From: Macrostomum lignano
Taxonomy: Eukaryota
Length of the DNA: 64,000 nucleotides
Direction: 5' to 3'
NCBI GenBank assembly: GCA_002269645.1
Contig: NIVC01000650.1
Span: forward strand, 340,996-404,995
Each line of letters opens with the position of its first letter. Within the stretch, counting starts at the first letter, position 1. A program made the position numbers and the translations under genes. The notes beneath the pieces are model-generated. The model did no database searches, was not told the DNA's origin, and was given only the letters and a program-made list of their open reading frames with translations. Below are positions 44,972 through 63,960 of the stretch, one piece after another.

Positions 44972-47900
44972 TTACGTCTCGCTGTGGGGCTTTTTACTAG
45001 TCGGATGTTGGACCAGAAAGGCGGGCAGGGCCACTAGGCTCACAGTAATAAACATGATGATGGTCAGGCTGACAAAGATCCAGAAGAAGATTCTGTCCAG
45101 TGCGAATGCGGCCGAACGCCAGTCGTCCGTGAAGTCGACGGTGTTGTTGGCCGTTGTGGCTGCTTCAATGCTCGACTGCTGCTGCAACGGCGCCGGCAGT
45201 TGCGGGCCGCTGCTATTCAATTGCAGCTGCCGCTGCGAGGCCGTCTGGCTGCTGCCGTTAACTGCCGAATTCAGGGCGCACTTGAAGTAGCTGGCCGATG
45301 GTGGCACCTTGTAAGAGTTCAAGTGGAATACGATCGTGCTTCGGTTTGTTGCTATGCAATTTCGTTAAATGTAATAAAGCTACAGAGAAAGGTGATTGTA
45401 GTCAGTGCGGATCGGAACTAAATTTTTCCATTCTTTATCTTTTGCAAACGTCCGAGTGTGTCGAAAACTGAGAGGTTCCAAAGAATCCTTACTCTTCGCC
45501 AAACGGTCTTATTCGATGAGCTGCAGAATGAACTCAACCTTGAACAGACTCATTTGAAGTTATTTGCGCAAACTACTAGAGATTTGCTTCGTGTTGATTC
45601 TTTCCTTGCTACTTGGAAGAGATAAAGAATTCGACCTTGAAGAACTAGAGCTACTCTCGCATCTCCAATATGCGAGACGTCAACTGTAGAAGCGTTTTAA
45701 ATATAAGCTCCTGTTAGTCCATGTGCGAGTTTTGTAGTTTCTGTACACCAGCTATTCGGGCATTTCTGTTTGTCTTTAATGTGCTGATTAGCATGCTACA
45801 AGATCTGAAGATGAAGATTTGGAAAATAATTCGGGATCGCTCTTCGCACAGGGACTAAAAGTTAAGCAGAGTTCGCCACGGTTAGTAGGTGGCACTACAC
45901 TACTAGCATACCAAGCCTTTGGATGCTGTGTTGCAATTCACTTCCTTGGCGGCACGCCTGGCCAACCTTGCTTCTATTTCTATGAATACGTTGCTATACA
46001 CTTCCGATACGTGGTCAAGCAGTTTATACTCATCCTTTCTTTAATCAAAGTTCAATCGCACCTGGCTCATGGTTGGTGCCCAGTTCTGGCGCTGAATTGG
46101 CGAATAGTCATCGGATGCGGCCGTGCAGCTTGCTGGGAAATTATCGCCGTCGGCGGAGTTCAAGCTGGCCGCGTCGAACTGTTCGATCTGGCGCATCCGG
46201 GCGATGCCTCGCCGCAGGCGCAGACTCACCTCCAGCTGGTTTGCGGCCGCTTCTTCGCGCCGGCTCCGCCACTTACGGTGCAGGCGCGCCAATTTGAGCA
46301 CGAAGTCTCCTGGCCTGGCCTGCGCTTCGGAAAAGTAAAAATGCGTCACCGTCACCGCCATGACAACCGCCAGGGCCACCATCAGCATTGTGACGCTGAA
46401 TAAAAGACCTGGATCGGGTAAATTAAGGAATGAGATCGGGATGCAGGCGAGGATGAAGACCAGCAGACAGTGGCGTACGCAGGAATTTCAATGAAAGGGG
46501 CCAGAAACCCTAAAGGGGCGCCAATAATCCAATATTTAGTGTTTTGGTAGGCGCCCCTGTCTCTTGATGGGCGCCCCTGTCTCTTGGTGGTCGCCCCTGT
46601 CTCTTGGTGGTCGCCCCTGTCTCTTGGTGGTCGCCCCTGTCTCTTGGTGGTCGCCCCTGTCTCTTGGTGGTCGCCCCTGTCTCTTGATGGGCGCCCCTGT
46701 CTCTTGGTGGGCGCCCTGTCTCTTGGTGGGCGCCCCTGTCTCTTGGTGGGCGCCCCTGTCTCTTGGTGGTCGCCCCTGTCTCTTGGTGGTCGCCCCTGTC
46801 TCTTGGTGGGCGCCCCTGTCTCTTGGTAGGCGCCCCTGTCTCTTGGTGGGCGCCCCTGTCTCTTGGTGGGCGCCCCTGTCTCTTGGTAGGCGCCCCTGTC
46901 TCTTGGTGGGCGCCCCTGTCTCTTGGTGGGCGCCCCTGTCTCTTGGTAGGCGCCCCTGTCTCTTGGTAGGCGCCCCTGTCTCTCTTAGTGAGCGCCCCTG
47001 TCTCTTGGTGGGCGCCCGTGTCTTGGTGGTCACCCCTGTCTCTTGGTGGTCGCCCCTGTCTCTTGGTGAGCGCCCCTGTTTCTTGGTGGGCGCCCCTGTC
47101 TCTTGGTGGGCGCCCCTGTCTCTTGGTGAGCGCCCCTGTTTCTTGGTGGGCGCCCTAATATTTGGTTAAGAGGCGCGGCCCCCTGCCTTCCCTCTGCGTA
47201 TGCCGCTGTCCGCACGATCCACTAATAACGAGAGTCCTCACCAACTATGGGCACCGCATCCGGAGTTGGCGGCATAGCCTCGCTAACCATGAGCAGGAAC
47301 ACCACCAGAGCCAGCAGCACTGTGATCTCCAGGTTGACTTTCTCGCCGGACTCAATCGGCAGGAAGAAGCCCAGAATTGATACGCAGTAGATGAGCAGGC
47401 AGGGGCAGATGAGGTTGATCACGTAAAACAGGCACCTGCGAAACATGTGGATGTTGAAGTGCACGAGCGGAAACGGCTCGGCACAGCAGGGGTAATTTTT
47501 CTCCTCCAGGTACGGCGTTATGGCCGTCACCATCCACTCCTGGTTACGCTCGATGAAATAAACTTTCTGATTCTCTGGCCCGGTGTGGTTCAGCTTCAGT
47601 CGCTGCCCGTCGTAGGTCCAGGACATCATAGTCATGTTGCAGTCCTGCGTATCGAATGGAAAGTAGCGAACGTCGAGGGTGCAGTAGAGTTTCACCACGA
47701 TGGGAAAAGTCCACATCACACTGCCGGTGGAGGTTACTATGGCGTTGGTGTTGATGTAGTCGGAGTACTCGTCGTTGGCGCTGAGGGTTTGACGGCAGAA
47801 ATGGAATAGCTTCGGAAACGGTAGCAGCAACTGACAAAGCATCTGAGAGGGTGACAGAGCAACTGCGAGGGTGATAGAGCAACTGCGAGGGTGACAGAGC

Positions 47901-50072
47901 AACTGCGAGGGTGACAGAGCAACTGCGAGGGTGACAGAGCAACTGCGTGGGTGACAGAGCAGCTGCAAGGGTGACAGAGCAACTGAGAGGGTGACAGAGC
48001 AACTGCGAGGGTGACAGAGCAACTGTGTGGGTGACAGAGCAACTGCAAGGGTGACAGAGCAACTGAGAGGGTGATAGAGCAACTGAGAGGGTGATAGAGC
48101 AACTGAGAGGGTGACAGAGCAACTGCGAGGGTGACAGAGCAACTGCGAGGGTGACAGACCAACTGAGAGGGTGACAGAGCAACTGCGAGGGTGACAGCAT
48201 CTGAAAGGGTGACAAAGCAACTTAGAGGGTGACAGCATCGCAGAGGGCTACAGCATCAGAGAGAGAGTGACAGAGCATCTGAGAAGACGACAGCATCGGA
48301 GGGTGACGGCCTTAAAGAGGGTGACAACATCGGAGAGGGCGACAGCATCAAAGAGGCTGTCAGCATCGGAGGGTGACGGCCTTAAAGAGGGTGACAGCAT
48401 CGGAGAGGGCGACAGCATCAAAGAGGCTGTCAGCATCGGAGGGTGACGGCCTTAAAGAGGGTGACAGCATCGGAGAGGGCGACAGCATCAAAGAGGCTGT
48501 CAGCATCGGAGGGTGACGGCCTTAAAGAGGCTGTCAGCATCGGAGGGTGACGGCCTTAAAGAGGGTGACAGCATCGGAGAGGGCGACAGCATCAAAGAGG
48601 CTGTCAGCATCGGAGGGTGACGGCCTTAAAGAGGGTGACAGCATCGGAGAGGGCGACAGCATCAAAGAGGCTGTCAGCATCGGAGGGTGACGGCCTTAAA
48701 GAGGGTGACAGCATCGGAGAGGGCGACAGCATCAAAGAGGCTGTCAGCATCGGAGGGTGACGGCCTTAAAGAGGGTGACAGCATCGGAGAGGGCGACAGC
48801 ATCAAAGAGGCTGTCAGCATCGGAGGGTGACGGCCTTAAAGAGGGTGACAGCATCGGAGAGGACGACAGAACACTGGAGAAGGGAAGGCAGTATCGACGA
48901 GAAAGATTATGAAGAGGGGCAAATGAGAATGAGAGAAAATAAAATCAGGTATGTAAGAAGGGACCTGTCAGCTAAAAGACAGAAAGGACTGTTGGCACAG
49001 TGTGACTATAGACTTCTCAGTCGGAAAGATCCAAACCAATTGGATTACTAATCCCATTCTGATCCCATCAACAATCCATGTTGTCAGCTTAACTTAGTCT
49101 GCTCTTGCAGATTAAATCCGGTGTCAATCAAACGCTCAAACACACCTAGCCCACCAAAAAAGCAACTATTGTATAAATGGAGGCGGCAACCTGAGATCGT
49201 TAACTTCAACAAGTGCTTTGTGCTTCGCATTAAGACCCTATTTTTCTCACGCTCGAACAGATTTTTTACTCTATAACTTCTATACTTCTTTGTGTACGAA
49301 ATTATTGATCTTCTTCAATATCGTTCCTTAATTCCTTAATTGAGCTACTTGGTCTAAAGTACGCCTGTCTGCAAAGGCTGATTTTATCGATTTTCCTGGT
49401 CAACTCTTCAATTCTTGTTTTTCTACCCCAGCCAATCCCAACTCGCTGTCATTGGCTGGCCGGGGGTAGGGGGTGAGAGAGACCCTAGCGTAACTCCTTC
49501 CCTATATCAAGCCTACCCACTCTATCGATTTTAGCGCCGCATGACTCACTAGTTGGAGATGATCACGTCCGGGCGCCAAATACTTCTCGACGGGATCCAG
49601 ATTTTCTCAATAGGATAGGTGCTTAGATTCCAGCGCATGTATTCGTCCACCCAGTACTGCAATGTTAAAATCGTTTTTTAATTAGAAAGCACAATCGATA
49701 TATAAAGCTGGCTCCTGCTGAGCACATACCAATCTGAGTGAAAGCAGTGCTGACACCGTTTGATGCCTTTCGCTCTGAAAAAGAATTAATAATGAAGCTC
49801 TCAGCTTCTCATTTGAATCAACATAGACAAAAATATTATCCGAGAACCAGAGAATGACAGGTTGATACGAGTATTGAGTAGCTAATACTCCGAGCATCTC
49901 ACAGTGTCCAGGATGTGAAACAGCGACACACCGAGATCGCACGTGACCGCTGTTTTGTCGTCCCGGACTGGCCGGCTCGTGACGTCATAGCCTTTCATAA
50001 GGAACTGCTTGAGTCTGTACTCAACAGACGAATTACCGTACGGCAGGTCGCTTGTCCAGGTGTAGGCTCTCG
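44972..50072 (-). CDS. Cys-loop ligand-gated ion channel, nicotinic acetylcholine receptor alpha-like subunit (5'-incomplete)
   Basis: Exons (-) 50072-49903, 49774-49730, 49656-49550, 47780-47242, 46408-46062, 45307-44972 all join in phase (~514 aa). GYDVTSRPV, WRPD, Cys-loop CTLDVRYFPFDTQDC, SWTYDG, vicinal YPCC, TM2 GEKVNLEITVLL, TM4 DWRSAAFALDRIF. The signal-peptide exon was not found in the window. Confidence 0.93.
46550..47155. repeat. Intronic minisatellite, 20-bp unit (CTTGGTGGGCGCCCCTGTCT)
   Basis: About 30 copies in a receptor intron. Confidence 0.95.
47830..48200. repeat. Intronic minisatellite, 20-bp unit (GAGGGTGACAGAGCAACTGC)
   Basis: Tandem units. Confidence 0.93.
48280..48860. 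repeat. Intronic 70-bp tandem repeat, ~8 near-identical copies
   Basis: Unit CAGCATCGGAGGGTGACGGCCTTAAAGAGGGTGACAGCATCGGAGAGGGCGACAGCATCAAAGAGGCTGT, built from diverged sub-units related to the adjacent 20-mer. Confidence 0.93.
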
Positions 50073-50806: not shown

Positions 50807-53022
50807 TGATGTAACCGCCCTTGTCGCCTGTCCGCTCCGTAGAGAGACGAACGCATGACTAGAGGGGCCAATGACCGTAGGCTGCCTATGACCGGGCAAT
50901 GACCTGACGGACCTCCAGCACCAGACTGTCCCGCCCACATGATTAGTAGCTTTGGTAGCGCTTCGTGACCAGAGGGCCAAGGACCCACATGGACCCCACC
51001 TGTAGCCAAGGTGCAATAGTTGGTCACTCGGTCATAGTATGACCGAGTGGCTGCCACCACTCTATGTGACCTGGCGCACCTGGATCTTTCTACCAGACCT
51101 CTCGAGGCTAGAGCCCCGCCTGGATTGGTTACCAGGGGATTTAGGCTAACAGGGGAGACGCATGCAGCCGAGTACAGGGACTCTGCTTGGGGCATGATCG
51201 GGAACTCTGGGCTCAATCCTGGAGGATTTCTCAGCAGGGGATCCTTTGTGGCTGTGAGCGAGGCTGACTTGCGACTTTGATTACTAAGAGTAGTATGAGG
51301 CGAACATGTACTGTCTACAGTTTAGATTGCTCAGGGCGAAGGGACGCGTTAGCATGGGGTTGCAACCTTCCTACTGCCATTCTGTGCCAAGACTCGCTAA
51401 TCCCTCTACTGCACGCACACGCGGCCCCGCAGCACGCACTCACAGGCGGGCTTTGCACGGGGAGAGGCCATTAGCTTACCCAAACTTCCTTATGCTTTGC
51501 CACCCCGGGAGAAAGGCTTAGCAAGCCATGAGTGAAATGATGGTGAAAGATTGAATAATGATGAAGTTAGTTAATAGTTAATAATTAGGCCCTTAGGCAA
51601 ATAAGCAGGCAATTAGGCGGCTTCACTATTGAGTAAAATACAGCAAAAGATACGGTATCACAATTGGCTCAGCTCTCTAATCAGACAATGGAAAATAGGC
51701 AAACCCCGGATAAGCAAAGGCAATTAGAGCACAAATTAGTAGCAGGAACTTACCGGCAGCTGCACAGAGAGAGAGAGAGGCGGAGTGACCGAGGGCGGCT
51801 GTAGGCTGCAGTCAGGCAGACGGTGAAGCGGCGATGCGCTGGAGCGACGAGGCGCTGATGTAGATCAGGCGATGCTGATGATGCTGGGCGGTATCAGACC
51901 GCTGGCCGATAGGCGAGCTCACTTGGGGAGCTAAGGATAACTTGGCGGTAACAGACCGCGGGCCGGCAGGGATTCGTCTTATAGACGAATGGGTCAGAAC
52001 TCAATCTGACAGCAAGTCCAAAGAAGGACGAGGAGAGGAACAGAGATAAACTCAGTTGAGTATTCTCATGCCGAAATCGCTTCCTTTTATAGACCTCACA
52101 GCCGCCTCCTCAAGGTCGTTACCATGGCTCCCTCTCTCTGATTGGCTGCCGGCAGAATGACGTCAGAATGAGTCATGATGAGAAGCATGAGACCGGCATA
52201 GCAACATGAGAAATCGGGAAATTGCGCAATCCGGAGGTGGGGTGGGGGGATAATTGGCGCAGCGGGTGGTCGCGAAAGTGTTGCGCAAGCAAACATTGAG
52301 AACAATAGGGCTGGGGTCGAGAACAAAGGAATTGGAAATCGGGGATAATTGGGGAAAACTGAGAACAATGGAAAAGTAAACATTGGAGAAAAGGTGATAA
52401 TTAGGTGCGAAAACGAGAACAAAAGAAAGAGAAAATCGGAGAAAATGTGATAATTGGTGGGGTCGAGAGAACAAAAGAAGCAAAAACGAGAACAATAGAA
52501 GCGGAGGTGGGGTGGGTGTCACATGAGAAATTTGGGAAGGAGAACAATAGCGTGAGAAAAGGTTGCGCAAGAGAGGGGGATGAGTCATCGATGAGTCACC
52601 GAGGGGGAGAAGGGGTCACACGACTTGCGTCACCGTTTGGGAGTTTGAGAGGGGATGGGGAGACGGTGAGCACACAAAGTACTGTAAGTAGACACAGGGA
52701 AAGAGGGGACAGCGCAGGAAAAGAGTGCAGAGGGAGACAAAAAAAGGGAGGAGGTAGAGAAAGTACAGGAAGAATAGGGCGGGAACAGAAGAGATAGGGT
52801 AGAGGGGGAGGTACAGAAAGGGGTAGGGGCTCCGGAAAGGCAGGTGTGGCGGCAGGAGAGACGGGACCAAGGCAGCAGGAGGGTGCAGCAGAGCGGGAGT
52901 CTCCAGGCCCGGTCGGAGACCTGGCCGAGTCTCGACAGCTCTGTGCAGAGGGTGCACGGGATAGGAGGCACTTTCGAAAAAGTTCCCATGCCCTATCCCG
53001 CGACCAGAGCGTGGTTACATCA
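50807..53022 (-). repeat. 3' LTR (2216 bp)
   Basis: Direct repeat of 61748-63960 with fewer than about 10 differences seen by eye, mostly homopolymer indels; TATAAAAG at 52084-52091 and CCAAT at 52140-52147 on -. Confidence 0.97.
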
Positions 53023-53039
53023 CACCCCCACTGCCTTTT
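53023..53039 (-). other. Polypurine tract
   Basis: AAAAGGCAGTGGGGGTG on - immediately before the 3' LTR. Confidence 0.75.
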
Positions 53040-53626
53040 GTGACGGAACTGGTTCCGTCATCATCACTGCCCAACATGGAACCACACAGACGGGAGCGGG
53101 ATCTCAACCGAACGTGAAATCACAGAATTAACAAACCGCGAGCGGGAATGGAAAAAGGCGATAAAATAGAGGGGATAGCAATAAATTCACAAAACGAGAT
53201 ACATAGGTTGGAGTGCAATACAGAATTTCAAAAATTTCAACTGTTGCTGTGGCTAAAGTGGGAGGGGGGAAACACAGACAGCGCAATAGTAGGGAGAAAA
53301 ATAGCGAATTGTCAACAATAAATTATCATAATTGGATAGAAGCGCAGCTGGGAAAGAGAGGAAACGGGGAAGGGTGAGGGAAGTGGGGAAAAAGAAGGGG
53401 GAAGGGTTGCTAGCACACAGCCAAGGGCAGAGCCTCGGGGAGAATGACGATTACACAGGGGAAAAATACTAATGCAGCGCAGTAAATTAATAAGCTAATT
53501 TCGCCGGGAGTTCAACCGCACGGAGGCCTAGCGTCCTTGAAGGCTCGGACCCCGCTTCAGCCAGTCAGAGGGCTTCGGGGCGATCGGTTGTAGGCTGGGA
53601 GGCGCCGCGCCGTGCGCTGGCCACTG

Positions 53627-53740
53627 TATAAAAGGCGCCACTGATAACGGGAGCCGGCTGCCTGCAACCTACACGGAGTCGCAGTTTCCAACCAAGGCAC
53701 TCAGCGCGATTTTCCAAACTATACAACTACTCGGTAAGTC
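53627..53740 (+). promoter_or_regulatory. Antisense TATA promoter and non-coding first exon inside the LTR element
   Basis: TATAAAAG at 53627-53634 after a GC-rich stretch; CG|GTAAGT donor at 53733/53734. Confidence 0.5.
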
Positions 53741-54081
53741 CCATCACCAACCTGATTTCCTTTCGCCTATACGTTAAACGAAATCTACCCACTCGCCATG
53801 CCTTTCGTTTTAAACTGAGCCAATTGCAGTAATAATATATGGCCTTTCTTACGGTAAAAGTAGTGAGCAGCCAACACAGAGCCATTTTTAGGAATTTTTA
53901 GAATAATGACACAACAATGACTCGTATATTGGTTATTAAAGTTTAAAAATGAATATTATGGAAGAACCGAATATTAATAGGATAATTTCACACACACACA
54001 CACGACAAACACACAACGCAAGGGGGCGGAAAGGCGGGTCGGACCGGCCGGCGGACGTCGCTCAGCAGGCAGTCAGCATCC

Positions 54082-55431
54082 TTACTCGAAATGGGCCTCT
54101 TGATTTAGCTGGTACGGGCCATATGCCGCCACCTGAGCCATGGCACTTGCCCATGCTTCCACATAACGTTGGGCTGCCGCGGCCGTGAGCACCACTCGGT
54201 GCCATCGGCTAGGCAAGATGTCGTTGCGCAGCACGCCCCTCAACTGCGGCAGAGTCGGGATGCCCAGGGCTTGGCATTGGACGACGAAGGCCGCATTCCG
54301 TACTTGTTGCAGCCGTGTCAGAGTTGGTGCAGACAGGGGCGGCTGCGCGATTGCAAAATGCTGCAAAGTGCCACGGGGCACCTCGGCCAGGCCCGCGTAG
54401 CCGGGCTCAACGTCGCCCAGGGCCGCCAACACCCACCCACAGCGGCGATTGAACCGTTGCGAGAGAGTGGCGGCCCAGGCCACTGTGGCAAACGGCGCAT
54501 AGAGGAGGGGCGCAGAGGCCGGCGCGGAGGCCGCAAGAATGCCGTCGTGGATGACGAGAGCCTCTTCCCATTCGGCGCCCTCGCTCAGGAAGCCCCAGAG
54601 CAGCCCTGGCAGGTCCGCAGGAAGCATGCCCCAGCGGCTGGCCAAGCTGGCCAGGCCAATCAATAGCCGGGCTCTCTGGGTTGGTGTCAGTTGTCTAGTC
54701 ATCTGAGAGGAGGCTGCGCAGCTGATGATCACCTTCTTGTAGACCGGCCGATCGCAGGTGCTGAAGATTGCTGTGATGGGGGCACAGGACGGCGGCCGGG
54801 CTGTCAGGTGTGATGGTTCCTCATCCACAACCTTGCGGAGGAACTTGGCGGCCTGCCGGACTAGGTCGCCGAGGGCGTATTTGTAGGCGCTCTGGGCCGC
54901 TGCCTCGATGTACATTAACAGCGTATTGTCAACCAATCCCAGCAGGGCCGCTTTTGACAGGATGAGCAGACAGGGCCGGTCCAGGTTGTCGCGAAGTTGG
55001 CGCTCTAGAGTCGCATGCCTGTCCTCGGCCTGGAGTGGGCCATGATAGGACTCAGGCCCGACCCAGTGCACCAGATCCATAGCTGTCGCCGAAGGTTCGC
55101 CAGCCACCTGACCCCAATCGACTTCTTCTCTTTGCAGGGCGATGTCCACACTTCGGCGGCTGTTGGGCAGAACATCACGCAGGCGGCGGGCCGCCTCGCC
55201 GAATTCGGCCGCCAGGTCCGAAATGTCCGCGGTGTCGCCCCCAGCATTGGCCGGGTCGATTGTCTCGTCACCTTCTTCGACCCTGGCGGAGGCCGCCGCT
55301 GGCGGCTCGGGGCCGTCCTCCGCCTCTTGGATGGCGTCACGGGGCCGCTTTCGGCTAACTGGGCTGGCAGGACGCTCAGACGGTAAGCTGGAGCATAGCT
55401 GAATTCGATTGATGGTAGGCTTCGTGTCCAT
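54082..55431 (-). CDS. ORF3: unrecognised 449-aa protein carried by the LTR element
   Basis: Long intact ORF with ATG. Acidic/Pro-rich N-terminus with NLS-like RKRPR, then ~330 aa of apparently helical sequence. No signal peptide and no RT/IN/env motifs recognised. Confidence 0.75.
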   Translation of the reverse strand: MDTKPTINRIQLCSSLPSERPASPVSRKRPRDAIQEAEDGPEPPAAASARVEEGDETIDPANAGGDTADISDLAAEFGEAARRLRDVLPNSRRSVDIALQREEVDWGQVAGEPSATAMDLVHWVGPESYHGPLQAEDRHATLERQLRDNLDRPCLLILSKAALLGLVDNTLLMYIEAAAQSAYKYALGDLVRQAAKFLRKVVDEEPSHLTARPPSCAPITAIFSTCDRPVYKKVIISCAASSQMTRQLTPTQRARLLIGLASLASRWGMLPADLPGLLWGFLSEGAEWEEALVIHDGILAASAPASAPLLYAPFATVAWAATLSQRFNRRCGWVLAALGDVEPGYAGLAEVPRGTLQHFAIAQPPLSAPTLTRLQQVRNAAFVVQCQALGIPTLPQLRGVLRNDILPSRWHRVVLTAAAAQRYVEAWASAMAQVAAYGPYQLNQEAHFE

Positions 55432-56842
55432 GTCAAGCTGGATAGTTCATAGAATGCTTCAGCGATTGAAGGACAGAATGATTTCTCTGATTGATGATTT
55501 CCAGCTCTGGCAGGCGTGGGTCTTCTTATAGTGCCGGGGCTGGCTTCCCATTGGTTGAGCACATTGGGAGGCACACCTGCTGCGGCCGGGGTCGCCGTTG
55601 GCTTGGGACCGCTCGCTCTAGTCTCCGTGCGCTCTGATTGGCTGGTTCCGCCGCTTCCTGTTTCCTCACCTGTGAGCAGGGGGCAGACCCGAGACCACCT
55701 CCGGTCGCGCCCGCGGCAGATCCGTACTCCAGCCGACAGAGATCGCACTCCCACCTCACATGCACACATTCAGATCAGGCACACAAATTAATTTGGTTAA
55801 TATGAATAGAAGAGGGATTTGGGAGATTAGACTCCGGAGGATAAATGATGATGCGGCCCAACTCCCTTCGATTTCTTCCTTCAACGCCACGCGCACGCAG
55901 TTCTCATCCATGCCTCCGAGACCCTCATAAACTTAACAGCCGAAAGAATTCGAAAGAGGAATTAATCATTAATTTGACTGCCACCAGTTTGATGTACTAT
56001 TATAAAAGAGAAAGGGGAACCTACCACCATCTTGGCGCATTACCAAAGAAAAGAAAAGGAGGATCAGCCACCATTTTGAGAGAGGTTGCTAGGGAAAACT
56101 GCCACCAATTGTACATTAACAGGGAAGAGAAAGAGGGAACCCGTCACCAATTAGAGTGGATTGCCCGGGGAAACTGCCACTATTTGCCCTTCTACCAGAG
56201 GAGAGGAAGACGAAAAACTGCCATCCTTAGAGGTGTATCATTAAAAGAAGGCGGGGAAGAAGGCTACCACTACTTGATCACCTAGAGCTCAAGGGAAGGA
56301 GAGGGAATGAAGAAAGGAAGAAACCCCCAGGAAGGCCACTACCACACGCCATAAAGTTAAAATCCCCATCTATCTACATCCTAATACCCGGCTAGTTCCC
56401 TACTTCTATTTCATCCCTTAAATTCTCATTTTCAGGATTCCGGCCGCTAGTAGCCGAGCCCATCCTTGAAGAGGAGTCCGACTACGAAGCGCCCGAAGAC
56501 AGCCATTCAGAGCCGGACGCCCCCTCTGATTCTGGGCCGGCTGCGCCATCTGGTGACATAGGCGCCGCGGCTCCCGGGCCATGCGACCGCCGGGCCGCCA
56601 GCGAACCAGCGTCCGGGGCCGGTTGGCATCCGGTACCACCGCCGTTGTCAGCCCGAGCGCACGCTCCGCCGCCGGTCGCCGCGGTGACGCCCGTGGCTGC
56701 CGCTCCACAGCCCTTGCCAACCCCTGTGGTGGAGACCGACGGCTCCTGGCATTTGGTCGTGCTGTCGACGGCCCTAATAGCCGGTCTCACAATGCACTGG
56801 CTACTGCTCTTGGAGCTATTTCTGCGGCTTCCCAACTGCTGA
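55142..56842 (+). CDS. Candidate spliced antisense ORF, 215 aa, Arg-rich N-terminus and C-terminal hydrophobic anchor
   Basis: Acceptor TTCTTCTCTTTGCAG|55138, ATG 55142, donor ACG|GTAAGC at 55382 (phase 1), acceptor TTCTCATTTTCAG|56436 in matching phase, TGA at 56840-56842. Confidence 0.45.
55523..55641 (-). promoter_or_regulatory. Internal promoter for ORF3 (two CCAAT boxes and TATA)
   Basis: On -: AGCCAATC (CCAAT 55637-55641), ACCAATGG (55550-55554), TATAAGAA (55523-55530), ~90 nt upstream of the ORF3 ATG. Confidence 0.6.
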
Positions 56843-57428
56843 TGCTGGTGGTTCTTAATGCTTACTTACTAATTCTGAACTATCTGTCCCCATAACTTGA
56901 CTTTAATTACTTACCTGACTTTACATTGACTAAACCACTGGCCTACTCTAAACTAATTGCTGCCCCATTTGCCTGATAAACTTAATTACATTGAATGCCC
57001 CCCCTATTGCCTCATCGAAACCAATTAAAAGTTTCCCAAAATCGGACTTTCACAAAGTGTGAACAAACACACGAAATCAGACCTAAAGGTGCTAATTTCC
57101 TACGGTCCCAGACTTCCATTGTTCCCAGAAAATCTTAAACAGCGGGGCAGGACCTCCTGTGGAGCAGACCCATAGAAATTTTACTAGTTTCCAAGTTAAT
57201 ATTTACTGATAGGGAATTAACGCATACTGTACGGGCCTAATTTTCGAGCTAAAATCTTAGATATTTAAACAACACCAACGAGCACGAGGTCACAACATAA
57301 ATTCGAGTAATAGAGGGCATACGTAAATACGCGAAAAGCGGTCTCCAACGGGGCAACACGAGCAAAATTTCGACACGCGAATCGGGGGGGGGAATTAAGC
57401 AATCACTGGCTAGCTACCGATCTGTTAC

Positions 57429-57944
57429 TCAGCGGGGGTCGAATGGGAGACTCACACCTAGCAAGTAAACCTTTTCTGTTCGATAGTCTATGATAGCATG
57501 CGTACTGGCTAGAAAAGCACTACCCAGGAGGGAAACTGCTGCTGAATTGCCAACGACCAGAAAGAGGATTCTCACCTCTTCTAGCCCAATAACTGCTGTG
57601 AGGGTGGCCTGGCCTAGCATCTCTAATTCATTGCCCGTGTAGGACACGGCCTTCACACATGGGGGCTCCAGGGCCTCCACACTCTGTCCGGTAATTTTAG
57701 TAAAGTCTTTGACTGTTAGCAAAGACAGCGCACTGCCCCCATCTACCAGGAGGCGGGTGGGAACATTCTCAATTGGCAACTCTACAACAATATCTCTCCC
57801 GCGTTGTCCTCTAGCTGGTCTTGGCTGATAGAAATCGGGTACCTTCTCAAATCTAAACTTCTTGCTGGGCGGACGTGGCAGGTTAAGCTGGGCCCTAGAG
57901 AGGGAACGGGGCTGAGTTCGGGCCGGGCCATTCAGCCCTCCCAC
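57429..57944 (-). CDS. Retropepsin-type aspartic protease in the -1 frame of gag
   Basis: LLVDGGSALSLL active-site motif and C-terminal SLLGSAFL; overlaps the gag end; stops at 57429 with no RT following. Confidence 0.88.
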   Translation of the reverse strand: MGGLNGPARTQPRSLSRAQLNLPRPPSKKFRFEKVPDFYQPRPARGQRGRDIVVELPIENVPTRLLVDGGSALSLLTVKDFTKITGQSVEALEPPCVKAVSYTGNELEMLGQATLTAVIGLEEVRILFLVVGNSAAVSLLGSAFLASTHAIIDYRTEKVYLLGVSLPFDPR

Positions 57945-57953
57945 GGGTTTCCC
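57908..57953 (-). other. -1 programmed ribosomal frameshift signal
   Basis: G GGA AAC slippery heptamer in the gag frame (57947-57953), 8-nt spacer, GGGCUGA/UCAGCCC stem. Confidence 0.75.
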
Positions 57954-59377
57954 GAACCCGGGGGCTCTTCAGGCGTGGAAGGAGGAGGCATCAGAGCTTG
58001 CGCGCGCAGCTGGGCGAGCCTCTCCTGCCTCTCCCTGGTAGCCTCGTCTAACATATCTCTGCCCCACTCCTCTAAATCTTGCCTATGGCGATCAGGTGGC
58101 GCACGAAGCTGCAATTGCTGCTGCTGCACACCCGGCGCCGGCGGCGTGGGCGCCTCCTGAATTGCAAGCGGCGGGGGCTGGGGTTGGCGCCAGTTCCTAC
58201 TGCTATTAGAGCCGCCCTGCCCCTGCCTCCAGTTCCTGTTGGGAGTGGCGGGGCGAGGGGGCCTCATCTGCTGGGGCAGCTGGGCAACAGACTCTGCTGT
58301 CGCCTTCATAGTTTCATTGAGCTGCACCAGCTGGTTGCGCAGATCCTTTTGCGTTTGCTCTAGCGCGCCCAACCTCTCTTGCATCTCTGATAGGCCGTCA
58401 CCGTCCTCCTCCGTCTCGTCAGCTTCCTGGTTCACCATCCTGACCCACTTGCGAGGGGGCCTGGGTGGCTGCTGAGGTTGCAGACGGACTTCGGTGCGGG
58501 ACTCAGACCTGGGCGGGCCACTACTGTCCCATTTCCCGGCTAAGTCTGCGGCTTCTAACAGGGCTTGCTGCTGTTCTAACACCTGCTCAATTGTCTGCCA
58601 GCGACGGCTCAACAGATCTTGTCTGACCTGGCGGGGGAGCTTAGCGTGTTCCAAGTAGGTGTACACGATTTCTTGTTCTCTCTGCTCACCCTGAATCTGA
58701 GGAAACATGGCCGTTATCTGAGATCTTATCATAGCAGCAAAAGCACTATGTGATTGGCCGGGTTTCTGGCTCAGATTCTTCAGCTTATTTCTCTTAGCCA
58801 GATCAGTGTTGGCCTCGCCCAACTGCTCTCCTAATCTAGATACGAACTGCTCAAAGGGCAATTGCCCGTCCAATCCTAAGGCTAAGTTCTGAAATTCACC
58901 TGGGAGGTGCGAGATGAGCACCTGCTTCCTAGCCTGATCTCCTACAGTTCTCTCCGCGTCCAGCTTGTAGATCATTCTCTCTACCCATTGCACAAAACAG
59001 TGTTCGCCGGGAGAGAACTTTTCTACGTAGATTTTCGGCCTCTGGGCGTCTTGGCCCATGTTTAGCTGGTTAAACGCATTGGCTATAGCGGCAACTAAGT
59101 CTCCTAGCTGCGGGACTGCCTGAGGAGGATTCTGGGCTGCGTCCGGGGGAGCAGCGGCGGCTGCTGCGCCACCCTGATTGGGAGCGGGAGCTGCTACTCC
59201 TTCATCTGGTTCCTCAACTACTACTGCTTCTGGAGGCTGAGGGACCTGGTTACCAGCGGCTGCGGCCATTGCGGCTGCGGGGGCGGCAACTGCTGGGGTG
59301 TCAGCGGCCGAGGGTGGTTGACCAGGGGCGTCTGCGCACACAGCTTCTACGACCCTATCTCCACGCGCCCGTGACAT
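57932..59377 (-). CDS. Gag-like protein, 481 aa
   Basis: Ala/Pro-rich N-terminus; capsid-like core (EKFSPGEHCFVQWVER; LKNLSQKPGQSHSAFAAMIR); coiled-coil and RP/Q-rich C-terminus; no CCHC knuckle; located between the PBS and the protease. Confidence 0.85.
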   Translation of the reverse strand: MSRARGDRVVEAVCADAPGQPPSAADTPAVAAPAAAMAAAAGNQVPQPPEAVVVEEPDEGVAAPAPNQGGAAAAAAPPDAAQNPPQAVPQLGDLVAAIANAFNQLNMGQDAQRPKIYVEKFSPGEHCFVQWVERMIYKLDAERTVGDQARKQVLISHLPGEFQNLALGLDGQLPFEQFVSRLGEQLGEANTDLAKRNKLKNLSQKPGQSHSAFAAMIRSQITAMFPQIQGEQREQEIVYTYLEHAKLPRQVRQDLLSRRWQTIEQVLEQQQALLEAADLAGKWDSSGPPRSESRTEVRLQPQQPPRPPRKWVRMVNQEADETEEDGDGLSEMQERLGALEQTQKDLRNQLVQLNETMKATAESVAQLPQQMRPPRPATPNRNWRQGQGGSNSSRNWRQPQPPPLAIQEAPTPPAPGVQQQQLQLRAPPDRHRQDLEEWGRDMLDEATRERQERLAQLRAQALMPPPSTPEEPPGSGNPWEG

Positions 59378-61726
59378 GTGAATGCCGGATAGCTGGGGGA
59401 GTACCCACTACCGGGAAGGAAAAGAAAAGAAAACCGGGGCAACTACAGGTAAAGACCGAAAAGTTGATCCGAAACACACAAACACACTCACACACACAAA
59501 CACAGACAAAACCACACACTTGCGGCGTCGAAGAAAACAAATTGAAAAACGGGTGGCTCCACATAATTCCATTTAGGCAGTCCTAACGGCTTCACTCGGC
59601 AAAGCACACTGACTCAAACTGCGGCTACCACTACCAGTTGTCTATGGCACATCCTGACAGGGAAAAATTGGCTATTCAGAGAGACTTGACCTTCATTTTG
59701 CGGCCATGCTAGGGAACCCAAATGCCGACCGTAAACGGACTTACGGCACCTGTACAAATTCTCCCCTAGGGTTGCGCGCCGGACCCCATTTCCTTAAGAA
59801 AGCTACTACGAAGAAGCGTTGGCGCCTGGACCCAAAAACCCAAGTGGCGGGAGCAATCCCCATGGAGGTCCTCCCACTTTACTGCCCTTGCACAGCCGGA
59901 AAACCGTCGGAGTCCAGTGGGGCTTCCACCTCAGGACTACCAATCTTGTACACGCAGCTTCACAAAAGGCGGGAATCCAGCTCCCCTACGTCTAGCAGAA
60001 TCCACAAAAACCAAGACCTCCCCCTTCTGTTCAGAGCGAAGGCGCGCAGCGGGAGTCCAGACTAAACTGTCCCCGAAGTTTTCAGGTTAGGCGGATTACA
60101 AGCCTGAAACTCTCGCCCGCTTTCCTAGGATAAACAGACCTAAGTGAGTATCTTCCTGAAATGCTTGCCCCTCCGATACTCCACCTTTGCTGCAGCTCGA
60201 AATAGCATACTTGGGACCTTTATCTGATGGCGGAGAAAGTCCTACAGTTGTCAGCCTCTCCACTTTACTGTACTTGAACGCCCGGTTCTACCAGGAGACA
60301 GCGGTACCTCCATCTAGGTTATTCCAAGTTGCCAGAGACGTCAACCCGTCTTATTGACCTTGCGGGGCACTGGGGTGGCACTCTATGTACCGGGGCTTTA
60401 CATTAGGGGACTGCATGCAACCCTGCGTCTAAGCGCTTAGTGGGCTGCAGTGGCCAGAGGGGAAAAGAGTTGCGCAATAGCGCCTTCCTGGGCCAGGCTG
60501 ACAAGTCGGGCAGGAGCGCCGTTCTACCGGGTCGGGCTGATTGGCACACCCACCTCCCCTATCAGACTGACAGCAGGGGGGAGGAATTACTAAAGGAGGA
60601 GAATGCAGCAGGAAACATTACGAGATCACTGGGGGCCACCAGACTTCCAGTACACCATTCCAATACTCACTGAACTCCACTATCAATAGGATACTATGGG
60701 ATCTACTATTTCCAGCCACTGCACCAGCCCAAATGCAACCAAAGCAGTTACTACCGGGTCTGCAATACAGTGGGGAGAGTCAGCAGACACGTTGGGATCG
60801 AATCCCAGCCATGAAGGCACCAGGGGTTACCGCAGAATTCAGGTCCGGGCTGATCGCAGGTATTCCATAGGAGGTGACACTTTTTTTAGCCCGAGATTTT
60901 TGAGTCACACTGATACCCTACAGAGATACAATCACACCGCTATTCCCATTCCTGCGAGACTTTGGTATCCCCCAATGTTTCCAAGGCCATGACTACTGCT
61001 TCCCTTACTATGCATATATAGCGAGTTCCCCATAGCCCTTGATAGCTGTTCATTCTAATGGACAAACAAAACACGCTCCGGTCTCTACGCATTTCTAGGA
61101 TTAACTGAGCGATCAGGGAGAGCGACTGTTACACTCCCCCGAGTAAAAGAAAGAGGTAGGACAAAGGAAAGAAATGCTTCGCTTCCAGCTTCCCTGTGCT
61201 TGCGTGATGAGGCTTCCGTACCTGGCTGGCTGTCCACCTCAACACTCACACAGTTCTGCTGTAGGCTAGGCGAGAGAAAGAAAGGGAGGGGAAATAAAGC
61301 ATATTACCATGAAATAGAAAGTGAGTCCGGAAAATTCACTTTCGCAGTTCTTCACACACTCCGTTACCAGGTAGCTATTCTGATTGTAATCAAATCCGCT
61401 CGTCTACCACTTCACACTTTCTAGCGCTGAAACTGATCGGCTAAATTAATTTTAAATTGAATCAGGGGCTTTTGGCGAATGAATGAATTTGGAAATTTCG
61501 AATGAATTGAACGAATTCGCAGCCCGAAAAATTTGAAAAGTTACATTAATATTTTTGGATTTTGTTGCCTCACGCCATGGGAGAAGAGAATGACGATTGG
61601 CGATTTTTACGATTGGTAGATTTAGACATGGCACTCTTTGCGCTTCGGCCACCATTCTGAGGGATGCCACAGGTGCGCTTGTCACATCTAAACCACCAGT
61701 CCGAAACTCAGCGCTGTTTGCACCAG

Positions 61727-61744
61727 ATCCCACCGCTGCCACCA
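61727..61744 (-). other. Primer binding site complementary to the tRNA-Leu 3' end
   Basis: The + strand reads ATCCCACCGCTGCCACCA, the 3'-terminal 18 nt of eukaryotic tRNA-Leu(AAG/UAG) including CCA, 3 nt from the 5' LTR. Confidence 0.88.
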
Positions 61745-61747
61745 TTT

Positions 61748-63960
61748 TGATGTAACCGCCCTTGTCGCCTGTCCGCTCCGTAGAGAGACGAACGCATGAC
61801 TAGAGGGGGCAATGACCGTAGGCTGCCTATGACCGGGCAATGACCTGACGGACCTCCAGCACCAGACTGTCCCGCCCACATGATTAGTAGCTTTGGTAGC
61901 GCTTCGTGACCAGAGGGCCAAGGACCCACATGGACCCCACCTGTAGCCAAGGTGCAATAGTTGGTCACTCGGTCATAGTATGACCGAGTGGCTGCCACCA
62001 CTCTATGTGACCTGGCGCACCTGGATCTTTCTACCAGACCTCTCGAGGCTAGAGCCCCGCCTGGATTGGTTACCAGGGGATTTAGGCTAACAGGGGAGAC
62101 GCATGCAGCCGAGTACAGGGACTCTGCTTGGGGCATGATCGGGAACTCTGGGCTCAATCCTGGAGGATTTCTCAGCAGGGGATCCTTTGTGGCTGTGAGC
62201 GAGGCTGACTTGCGACTTTGATTACTAAGAGTAGTATGAGGCGAACATGTACTGTCTACAGTTTAGATTGCTCAGGGCGAAGGGACGCGTTAGCATGGGG
62301 TTGCAACCTTCCTACTGCCATTCTGTGCCAAGACTCGCTAATCCCTCTACTGCACGCACACGCGGCCCCGCAGCACGCACTCACAGGCGGGCTTTGCACG
62401 GGGAGAGGCCATTAGCTTACCCAAACTTCCTTATGCTTTGCCACCCCGGGAGAAAGGCTTAGCAAGCCATGAGTGAAATGATGGTGAAAGATTGAATAAT
62501 GATGAAGTTAGTTAATAGTTAATAATTAGGCCCTTAGGCAAATAAGCAGGCAATTAGGCGGCTTCACTATTGAGTAAAATACAGCAAAAGATACGGTATC
62601 ACAATTGGCTCAGCTCTCTAATCAGACAATGGAAAATAGGCAAACCCCGGATAAGCAAAGGCAATTAGAGCACAAATTAGTAGCAGGAACTTACCGGCAG
62701 CTGCACAGAGAGAGAGAGAGGCGGAGTGACCGAGGGCGGCTGTAGGCTGCAGTCAGGCAGACGGTGAAGCGGCGATGCGCTGGAGCGACGAGGCGCTGAT
62801 GTAGATCAGGCGATGCTGATGATGCTGGGCGGTATCAGACCGCTGGCCGATAGGCGAGCTCACTTGGGGAGCTAAGGATAACTTGGCGGTAACAGACCGC
62901 GGCCGGCAGGGATTCGTCTTATAGACGAATGGGTCAGAACTCAATCTGACAGCAAGTCCAAAGAAGGACGAGGAGAGGAACAGAGATAAACTCAGTTGAG
63001 TATTCTCATGCCGAAATCGCTTCCTTTTATAGACCTCACAGCCGCCTCCTCAAGGTCGTTACCATGGCTCCCTCTCTCTGATTGGCTGCCGGCAGAATGA
63101 CGTCAGAATGAGTCATGATGAGAAGCATGAGACCGGCATAGCAACATGAGAAATCGGGAAATTGCGCAATCCGGAGGTGGGGTGGGGGATAATTGGCGCA
63201 GCGGGTGGTCGCGAAAGTGTTGCGCAAGCAAACATTGAGAACAATAGGGCTGGGGTCGAGAACAAAGGAATTGGAAATCGGGGATAATTGGGGAAAACTG
63301 AGAACAATGGAAAAGTAAACATTGGAGAAAAGGTGATAATTAGGTGCGAAAACGAGAACAAAAGAAAGAGAAAATCGGAGAAAATGTGATAATTGGTGGG
63401 GGTCGAGAGAACAAAAGAAGCAAAAACGAGAACAATAGAAGCGGAGGTGGGGTGGGTGTCACATGAGAAATTTGGGAAGGAGAACAATAGCGTGAGAAAA
63501 GGTTGCGCAAGAGAGGGGGATGAGTCATCGATGAGTCACCGAGGGGGAGAAGGGGTCACACGACTTGCGTCACCGTTTGGGAGTTTGAGAGGGGATGGGG
63601 AGACGGTGAGCACACAAAGTACTGTAAGTAGACACAGGGAAAGAGGGGACAGCGCAGGAAAAGAGTGCAGAGGGAGACAAAAAAAGGAGGAGGTAGAGAA
63701 AGTACAGGAAGAATAGGGCGGGAACAGAAGAGATAGGGTAGAGGGGGAGGTACAGAAAGGGGTAGGGGCTCCGGAAAGGCAGGTGTGGCGGCAGGAGAGA
63801 CGGGACCAAGGCAGCAGGAGGTGCAGCAGAGCGGGAGTCTCCAGGCCCGGTCGGAGACCTGGCCGAGTCTCGACAGCTCTGTGCAGAGGGTGCACGGGAT
63901 AGGAGGCACTTTCGAAAAAGTTCCCATGCCCTATCCCGCGACCAGAGCGTGGTTACATCA
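61748..63960 (-). repeat. 5' LTR (2213 bp)
   Basis: Copy of 50807-53022; TATAAAAG at 63024-63031 (-); splice donor CCG|GTAAGT at 62695/62694 (-). Confidence 0.97.

Follow-up and report, generated by a model that had tools for sequence, protein, structure and literature searches.

Among known systems, the retroelement described here comes closest to plant pairs with one-way dependence and to two-part pararetroviruses preserved as fossils. The element occupies positions 50807-63960 (minus strand) of a 64,000-nucleotide stretch of the Macrostomum lignano genome (GenBank assembly GCA_002269645.1, contig NIVC01000650.1, positions 340,996-404,995 of the forward strand), referred to below as the window. 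RLG_Sabrina_SA of wheat is a Gypsy element that encodes GAG-Pro only, is called semi-autonomous, and co-evolves with RLG_Wilma (PMC9744471). Transfer of long terminal repeats (LTRs) by template switching has been proposed for systems of the Sabrina_SA/Wilma type (PMC9744471). RLG_Quinta encodes GAG and an unknown domain and is thought to donate GAG to RLG_Cereba, and the pair is called partially mutualistic (PMC11302176). TR-GAGs are shorter than 4 kb and encode GAG only, and TR-GAG1 is reported to have no identified partner (PMC4350172). Segmented genomes are common in viruses. Within Ortervirales they are unknown apart from fossil florendoviruses, according to a review (PMC10377300). A survey of flatworm LTR elements was seeded with reverse transcriptase (RT); protease, gag, and non-autonomous elements do not come up in its main text (PMC12801592).

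A preliminary description of the window presented a pol-less LTR element organized like a complex retrovirus. The feature is real and goes beyond that account: the element is probably a single segment of a Ty3/gypsy retrotransposon that is bipartite. The genome holds two gene layouts, A with gag and protease and B with RT and integrase, joined to shared cis blocks. Both types have 4-bp target-site duplications (TSDs), the A genes are under purifying selection, and the same split recurs in a second, diverged pair (A2/B2). The window element, a member of family A1, is likely half A, and A and B likely complement each other in shared particles. The gene contents of A and B suggest mutual dependence. 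The best reading is a bipartite element that is old, yet recently active.

Structure and gene content of the window element

The 5′ LTR (61748-63960, minus strand) is 2213 nt with a TATA box at 63031-63025, and the 3′ LTR (50807-53022, minus strand) is 2216 nt. The LTR termini are TGATGTAACC...GGTTACATCA. One substitution and five single-base gaps separate the two LTRs, which marks the insertion as very recent. An 18-nt primer binding site (PBS; 61727-61744, minus strand) is separated from the 5′ LTR by a 3-nt spacer and is complementary to the 3′ end of tRNA-Leu(AAG). The PBS complement plus T-loop matched 21 genomic sites, and ARAGORN called tRNA-Leu(AAG) at one of three sites fetched. The polypurine tract (PPT) is short and imperfect, a purine-rich tract adjoining the 3′ LTR. 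TG...CA LTR ends, a tRNA PBS, a PPT, and a short TSD are the features of Ty3/gypsy (Metaviridae) elements. The TSD of the window copy is imperfect (TTTC left, TC right), and two empty alleles of the locus in the assembly have 18 other bases at the insertion site. In four other A1 copies for which both ends were read, the TSD is 4 bp. For the ends of the window copy, a 2-bp TSD type and an assembly misjoin were each considered and rejected.

The gag gene (57932-59377, minus strand) encodes 481 aa with a capsid core, a coiled coil, and a Q/P/R-rich tail, and no CCHC zinc knuckle was found in it. Window Gag is homologous to a domain of the partner B1 that is modelled as an Arc/PNMA2/Ty3-like capsid, a fold known from the B1 model only. 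A slippery site in the gag frame (GGGAAAC, 57947-57953, minus strand) is predicted to direct a -1 frameshift into the protease, and a hairpin 3′ of it is predicted at -29.7 kcal/mol (no shuffle control). The retropepsin frame (57429-57968, minus strand, -1 frame) lies behind GGGAAAC at 57953 and carries a D-G-G motif. Its stop is at 57429, and no pol follows. The protease matched retroviral-like aspartic protease 1 at E 1.5e-7 and Pfam only at E 0.021. A hidden Markov model (HMM) not trained on it matched it at E 3e-16. Between the window element and the diverged copy on C100, gag has a dN/dS of 0.097. Pfam detected no RT, RNase H, or integrase family in nine scanned open reading frames (ORFs) of the window element. 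GAG(-Pro) without RT and integrase is the gene content of semi-autonomous satellites. The preliminary description was accurate in listing 2.2-kb LTRs, a Leu PBS, a PPT, and intact gag and protease genes, and in reporting that pol is absent.

About 50 A1 gag-protease loci were found in the genome. Independent insertions are fewer than counted, given the redundancy of the assembly and the flanks common to several copies. Twenty stretches were fetched from copies without a match to ORF449, an accessory gene described below: 16 are deleted, two lie at contig ends, and two are truncated in gag. The deletions remove about 2 kb, including ORF449 and exon 2 of an antisense gene, and fall into at least three breakpoint classes among the 16 stretches. 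The accessory unit is therefore dispensable in cis. Pol follows the protease in none of the 20 stretches, nor in the other A1 and A2 copies examined. A simple pol deletion in the window copy was rejected on this ground, and the earlier view of a recently active pol-less family is supported.

The sole integrase found inside A1 copies (C616, C3989, and C3922) was rejected as the element's own; it belongs to a nested 2.1-kb element with a CCGG duplication. This transposon, presumably Ginger-like, has a frameshifted integrase and lies just upstream of the ORF449 TATA-like box at window-equivalent 55534-55537. Two of the three copies share a flank. The A1 copy on C1570 has a 6.2-kb insertion at window-equivalent 57197-57200, with ends that are presumably Helitron-like. 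Tandem A1 units with one common LTR, followed by a second PBS, occur on C3414, C546, and C4958. Substitutions are strand-skewed between window 50807-55537 and copies C616 and C100 (plus strand A/G 37 and 35, C/T 17 and 6).

A protease-less partner family

The genome was searched with a pattern of the LTR end plus PBS, which gave 96 sites (control 0), 60 of them with the spacer of the window pair (pair 1). These 60 exact junctions comprise 47 of gag-protease type (A), nine of RT type (B), and four truncated or tandem. The 47 A junctions lie about 2.6 kb from an A1 gag match. A outnumbers B about 5 to 1. No complete gag-protease-RT-integrase element was present among the 60 junctions (none among the 56 typed), in an assembly that may be incomplete. 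No complete autonomous partner sharing the cis motifs, as expected for a satellite, was therefore found at these junctions.

B1 shares window 63960-59168 and 53856-50807 at 98-99% identity. The 5′ block (59168-63960, minus strand) holds the LTR, the PBS, a 2.35-kb leader, and the first ~55-70 gag codons. The 3′ block (53023-53856, minus strand) runs up to the purine-rich tract beside the 3′ LTR. The ~4.8-kb 5′ block is 98.6-99.0% identical in six of nine B1 loci; two have internal deletions and one is cut by a contig start. Identity to the window is 97.9-99.1% over the 3′ block including the LTR, and the window 5′ LTR is 99.3-99.7% identical to B1 LTRs. The PBS is identical in B1 and in the second pair. 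The middle differs from A1 and is 4.5 kb, uniform across the nine loci. Four-bp TSDs were found in five of six B1 copies read at both ends.

B1 has a single frame of 1553 codons that starts with A1's first gag codons and continues with a capsid, a dUTPase-fold beta domain, RT, RNase H, and integrase. The frame is uninterrupted in two of the nine loci, which are identical to each other, and interrupted in the others. Pfam detected RVT_1, RNase H, rve, and H2C2. In an AlphaFold model of the N-terminal 305 residues (predicted local distance difference test [pLDDT] 85), a two-domain Arc/PNMA2/Ty3-like capsid is followed after ~25 residues by a dUTPase fold. The modelled capsid aligned to Arc with Z 10.2 (root-mean-square deviation [rmsd] 3.8, 118 aligned) and to PNMA2 with Z 8.7 (rmsd 7.3, 167 aligned). 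B has no Gag tail at all behind the capsid. In complete elements of this genome the dUTPase fold stands behind the protease.

No protease family was detected in B1 at E<=0.1 with Pfam. The protease HMM was built from 17 protease domains of this genome, with A2 in the training set and the window protease left out. It matched A2, a training member, at E 8.5e-32 and found nothing at E<=10 in six frames of nine B1 and two B2 elements (3149 pieces including controls). The aspartic protease of an autonomous element was thus undetected in B, and positive controls were detected. The five nearest RT relatives of B examined all have a protease, so its loss in B is derived. The preliminary description had pictured a satellite and proposed a search for an autonomous partner sharing the LTR and PBS. 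A partner with the same LTR and PBS exists, but it is itself defective: no other family carries both this LTR and an RT, and this one has no protease. The relation between A and B looks reciprocal for this reason, and the satellite view is not upheld.

A one-way dependence would keep that view in part. B would be effectively autonomous, its polyprotein uncut or cut by a protease of the host or another element, and A would be a semi-autonomous satellite like RLG_Sabrina_SA or RLG_Quinta. B does have a complete capsid fold and RT, RNase H, and integrase in one frame; the genome has many complete gypsy families with proteases; and A is the more numerous half by ~5 to 1, as is often the case with parasites. 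However, A keeps its protease in both pairs (A2 dN/dS 0.20), which would be pointless if B needed none, and B has no Gag tail behind the capsid. Pol of Ty1/Ty3 and of retroviruses needs processing by a protease, which also speaks against an uncut polyprotein. One-way dependence is considered unlikely.

B1 pol matched Ty3 at E 5e-118, and the best retroviral RT match was at E 5e-37. By search score, the RT is thus closest to Ty3 rather than to the retroviral clade. B1 has the order RT-RNase H-integrase with a Ty3-like RT, and the window element has no pol. The window element is not a complex retrovirus, and that organization, put forward in the preliminary description, holds as an analogy only. 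A defective provirus of such a virus, with Tas/HBZ-like regulators as accessory genes, would account for the long LTR, the candidate internal promoter, and a spliced antisense gene under selection. Against it, the partner pol is far nearer Ty3, no env-like ORF was found in the window element and no env family in scanned ORFs of A or B1, and gypsy elements are known to include some with additional or antisense ORFs (PMC11963269). Its probability is very small.

Complete gypsy elements nearest B by RT (C3853, C27, C108, and C1104) have an extra ORF 3′ of the integrase. By eye, the start of this ORF is presumably DnaJ/J-domain-like, and in C3853 and C27 it includes an HPDK-type motif. A further set of complete elements with a Leu-type PBS (C299, C833, C3152, C764, C991, C1189, and C1847) has extra 3′ ORFs of 300-500 aa unrelated to ORF449.

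A second pair and probable recombination between halves

A2 has the layout of A1, with no pol, the same PBS, and 4-bp TSDs, and also occurs as deletion derivatives. A2 and A1 are ~40% identical in the protease and ~45% in the capsid core. The A2 LTR is 2.0 kb, and the LTRs of pairs 1 and 2 are alike at their ends only. A2 encodes an ORF449 homolog of 384-397 aa (dN/dS 0.11), an antisense ORF at the same position (dN/dS 0.20), and a protease with a dN/dS of 0.20. B2 comprises two loci and a 3′ remnant, is protease-less, and lies behind A2's LTR. Over the LTR, leader, and 3′ end B2 matches A2 at 96-98%; its identity to B1 is 54-61%. B1-B2 synonymous sites are saturated. The RTs of B1 and B2 are 70% alike. 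The top 142 of 4571 candidates were scored, and the next nearest among these is at 50%.

A capsid tree of 14 rows (three short rows dropped, root not inferred) supported A+B at 100/100, A1+A2 at 98/98, and B1+B2 at 98/98. Given these capsid and RT groupings and the pair-specific shared LTRs, coding regions group by type and LTRs by pair. Among 25 copies of the 3′ block, B-diagnostic substitutions are absent from the LTR and all lie in the last ~90 columns of the shared block, beside the unique middle. B1 nests inside A1 diversity in the 3′ block, where an eight-site tract is common to just one A1 and one B1 copy. The tract and the edge-limited substitutions are the pattern that template switching would leave. 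Complementary genes and homogenized non-coding regions, both expected of a bipartite element, were found together.

A complete helper with this LTR might be missing from or collapsed in the assembly, or very recently lost, with A and B both parasites. The assembly is fragmented and redundant, many copies stop at contig ends, and counts are lower bounds. Yet none of the 56 typed junctions is complete, and no RT of 50-70% identity occurs among the 142 best candidates. B1 and B2 are both protease-less with saturated synonymous sites, so two separate helpers would have to be missing. A lost helper is accordingly given little probability. No B-lineage pol was found in seven further LTR neighborhoods without a PBS match (473 LTR starts exist).

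The region C100:600000-618499 was considered as a pol-bearing ancestor with an accessory ORF and rejected; it is a chimera or nested pair, and four sibling elements lack the ORF. Within C100:594000-618499, the pol-bearing element belongs to another family, and behind it come an accessory ORF and a 3′ region of diverged A2 type. Truncated A2/B2 pieces are nested with other retroelements on C621, C1319, C2038, and C255. In several truncated pieces the LTR start is joined directly to the middle of the accessory ORF.

Accessory genes

ORF449 (54082-55431, minus strand) encodes an orphan accessory protein of 449 aa with a predicted helical domain and an alpha/beta domain. Fifteen full-length stop-free copies with 99-100% identity are present in the genome (94 of 94 candidates scored). 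Against the diverged copy on C100, dS is 1.44 and dN/dS 0.10 (0.063 for residues 101-449). Homologs were found in A2 (22%, or 26% over 148 aa at E 2e-5) and in protein P0004 (30%). P0004 derives from a contig of assembled reads; nothing in this genome matches it closely, and it hints at a third lineage elsewhere. A search of a representative-protein library gave three matches, two true homologs and a TPR repeat rejected as spurious. No family was found for ORF449 in Pfam or Atlas, and no relatives in a metagenome scan. Three word-index searches found nothing; they say little, because they missed known homologs as well. For the ORF449 model (pLDDT 56), Foldseek gave nothing at E<=0.001 against PDB or BFVD, and the highest VIA Z, 7.6, was to helical bundles of a generic kind. 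A strong transmembrane stretch is absent from ORF449. A TATA-like box (TATAAG) with three CCAAT boxes upstream of ORF449 (55525-55641, minus strand) is a candidate internal promoter.

A gene on the plus strand runs antisense to the element. A TATA box at 53627 and a candidate non-coding exon 1 (53627-53733) with a donor at 53733 mark its putative start, and this region is found in all nine B1 loci, one with a variant box. Exon 2 (55138-55382) has an acceptor at 55137, an ATG at 55142, and a donor at 55382. It overlaps the ORF449 N terminus and is frame-compatible with the last exon. Intron 2 (55383-56435) is 1053 nt, with the acceptor at 56435, and its GT..AG ends on the plus strand give the antisense direction. 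The last exon (exon 3; 56436-56842) has 134 codons, encodes an acidic/Pro-rich segment with a hydrophobic C-terminal stretch, and stops at 56842. The phases give 215 codons.

Intron 2 is skipped in contigs of two of four runs (X2 and X9), from two studies. The runs are presumed RNA by prediction rather than by record, and the A sequence alone was the query. The intron is retained in all 15 genomic stretches (14 loci) that hold both flanks. Exon 3 has a dN/dS of 0.20 and 0.33 and no stops, and every other frame has stops. In exon 2 the acceptor, ATG, and donor are preserved in the diverged copy on C100 (dN/dS 0.23).

ORF449 and the antisense gene are real and under purifying selection (dN/dS 0.1-0.3). 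The orphan ORF of the preliminary description therefore stands, as does the conservation of accessory ORFs between copies; for the spliced antisense gene, intron 2 and the coding of exon 3 are supported and the first intron is inferred. TATA-like boxes mark the three start sites as candidates only, and the antisense intron 1 is likewise a candidate. No known family was found for either accessory protein, and both are conserved orphans without known relatives outside this lineage. They might tentatively be seen as acting in trans, as regulators or modulators of host defence, which is a weak step in the argument.

Proposed cycle

The proposed bipartite cycle would begin with co-expression of both RNAs from identical LTRs. 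A would make bulk Gag, plus Gag-protease by -1 frameshifting. The B polyprotein would enter the shell through its own capsid domain, and A protease would free RT and integrase. The shared leader would allow packaging of either RNA, which B enzymes would copy from a tRNA-Leu primer and integrate. In mixed particles, template switching would hold the cis blocks together in sequence as the coding middles drift apart. A single split, through duplication and reciprocal loss, likely preceded the divergence of pairs 1 and 2. A fuller version of this reading is fairly probable: a living, obligately bipartite LTR retrotransposon in which an ancestral Ty3/gypsy genome divided once, leaving Gag, protease, and accessory genes on one segment and RT and integrase, with a capsid tag and no protease, on the other. 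In this version at least two segment pairs are kept by LTR/leader recombination, and the Gag:Pol ratio is set by the ~5:1 copy ratio rather than by frameshifting.

Several points weigh against the bipartite interpretation. The case for complementation is entirely genomic. The run contigs bear on A sequence, and expression of B is inferred. With its full capsid domain, B as modelled could in principle assemble alone. The A1 protease motif is D-G-G rather than D-T/S-G, and the A1 protease differs from the diverged copy by three synonymous and four non-synonymous changes, too few for dN/dS. In the capsid tree, the B1 branch is long. Both full B2 copies carry one common frameshift early in the capsid domain, so neither is uninterrupted. 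The RT search covered the best 142 of 4571 candidates, and just seven non-PBS neighborhoods were covered among 473 LTR 5′ ends.

Leader and genomic surroundings

The 2.35-kb leader (window 59378-61726) has several upstream ORFs and a TATA-like run at 61020. A polypyrimidine-AG stretch lies directly before the gag ATG at the leader end. Given these features, gag RNA may be spliced or internally started. The leader has no coverage in contigs of two runs (contigs alone, assembled data). At window 47222-48247 (minus strand), 2.6 kb from the element, lie exons of a gene of the nicotinic acetylcholine receptor type (Pfam Neur_chan_LBD and Neur_chan_memb), surrounded by many different minisatellite arrays within window 1-50700. 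A near-identical flank without the element is found in inverted orientation elsewhere on this contig, and also on C2952.

Comparison with known systems

Foamy viruses have an internal promoter. Retand elements resemble the window element in extra 3′ ORFs and antisense coding (PMC11963269). HTLV-1 HBZ, named in the same source (PMC11963269), is alike in antisense coding, but no env was found in the window element. No sequence or fold similarity of the accessory genes to Retand, HTLV-1 HBZ, or foamy virus genes was found.

RLG_Sabrina_SA is, like the window element, a GAG-Pro-only Gypsy element with a partner (PMC9744471). Wilma is described as an autonomous partner that shares only a few motifs (PMC9744471), whereas the partner here is protease-less and shares 4.8 kb and 3 kb at 98-99%. 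Quinta and Cereba share LTR ends, PBS, and PPT, a likeness to A and B (PMC11302176). Cereba encodes all proteins including the protease (PMC11302176), which makes that dependence one-way, whereas A and B each lack essential genes. BARE-2/BARE-1 and TR-GAG are also protein-coding non-autonomous LTR elements complemented in trans (PMC4350172). BARE-2 lacks GAG and borrows it from complete BARE-1 (PMC4350172), unlike A and B, which are both defective. No reciprocal LTR-retrotransposon pair was found in the literature searched, with Repbase, Dfam, GyDB, and most subscription journals outside the search. Surveys seeded with RT, such as PMC12801592, have an annotation blind spot: half A would escape them, and half B could be entered as one more ordinary family. 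Supplements 2-5 of that survey, outside this comparison, might list B as a family.

If a recently active two-part LTR retrotransposon is confirmed, the origin and persistence of segmentation become testable. It would also be testable whether defective mobile elements cooperate rather than only parasitize. The nearest working analogy for A and B is the ePVCVL and florendovirus pairs. ePVCVL/ePVCVL2 (PMC5491270) and the bipartite florendoviruses (PMC10377300) are likewise two defective, complementary reverse-transcribing genomes with non-coding regions homogenized by recombination. They are fossil, non-integrating plant Caulimoviridae in which both partners keep the protease (PMC5491270, PMC10377300). 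A and B, in contrast, are integrating animal Ty3/gypsy elements with very recent insertions, split at the protease.

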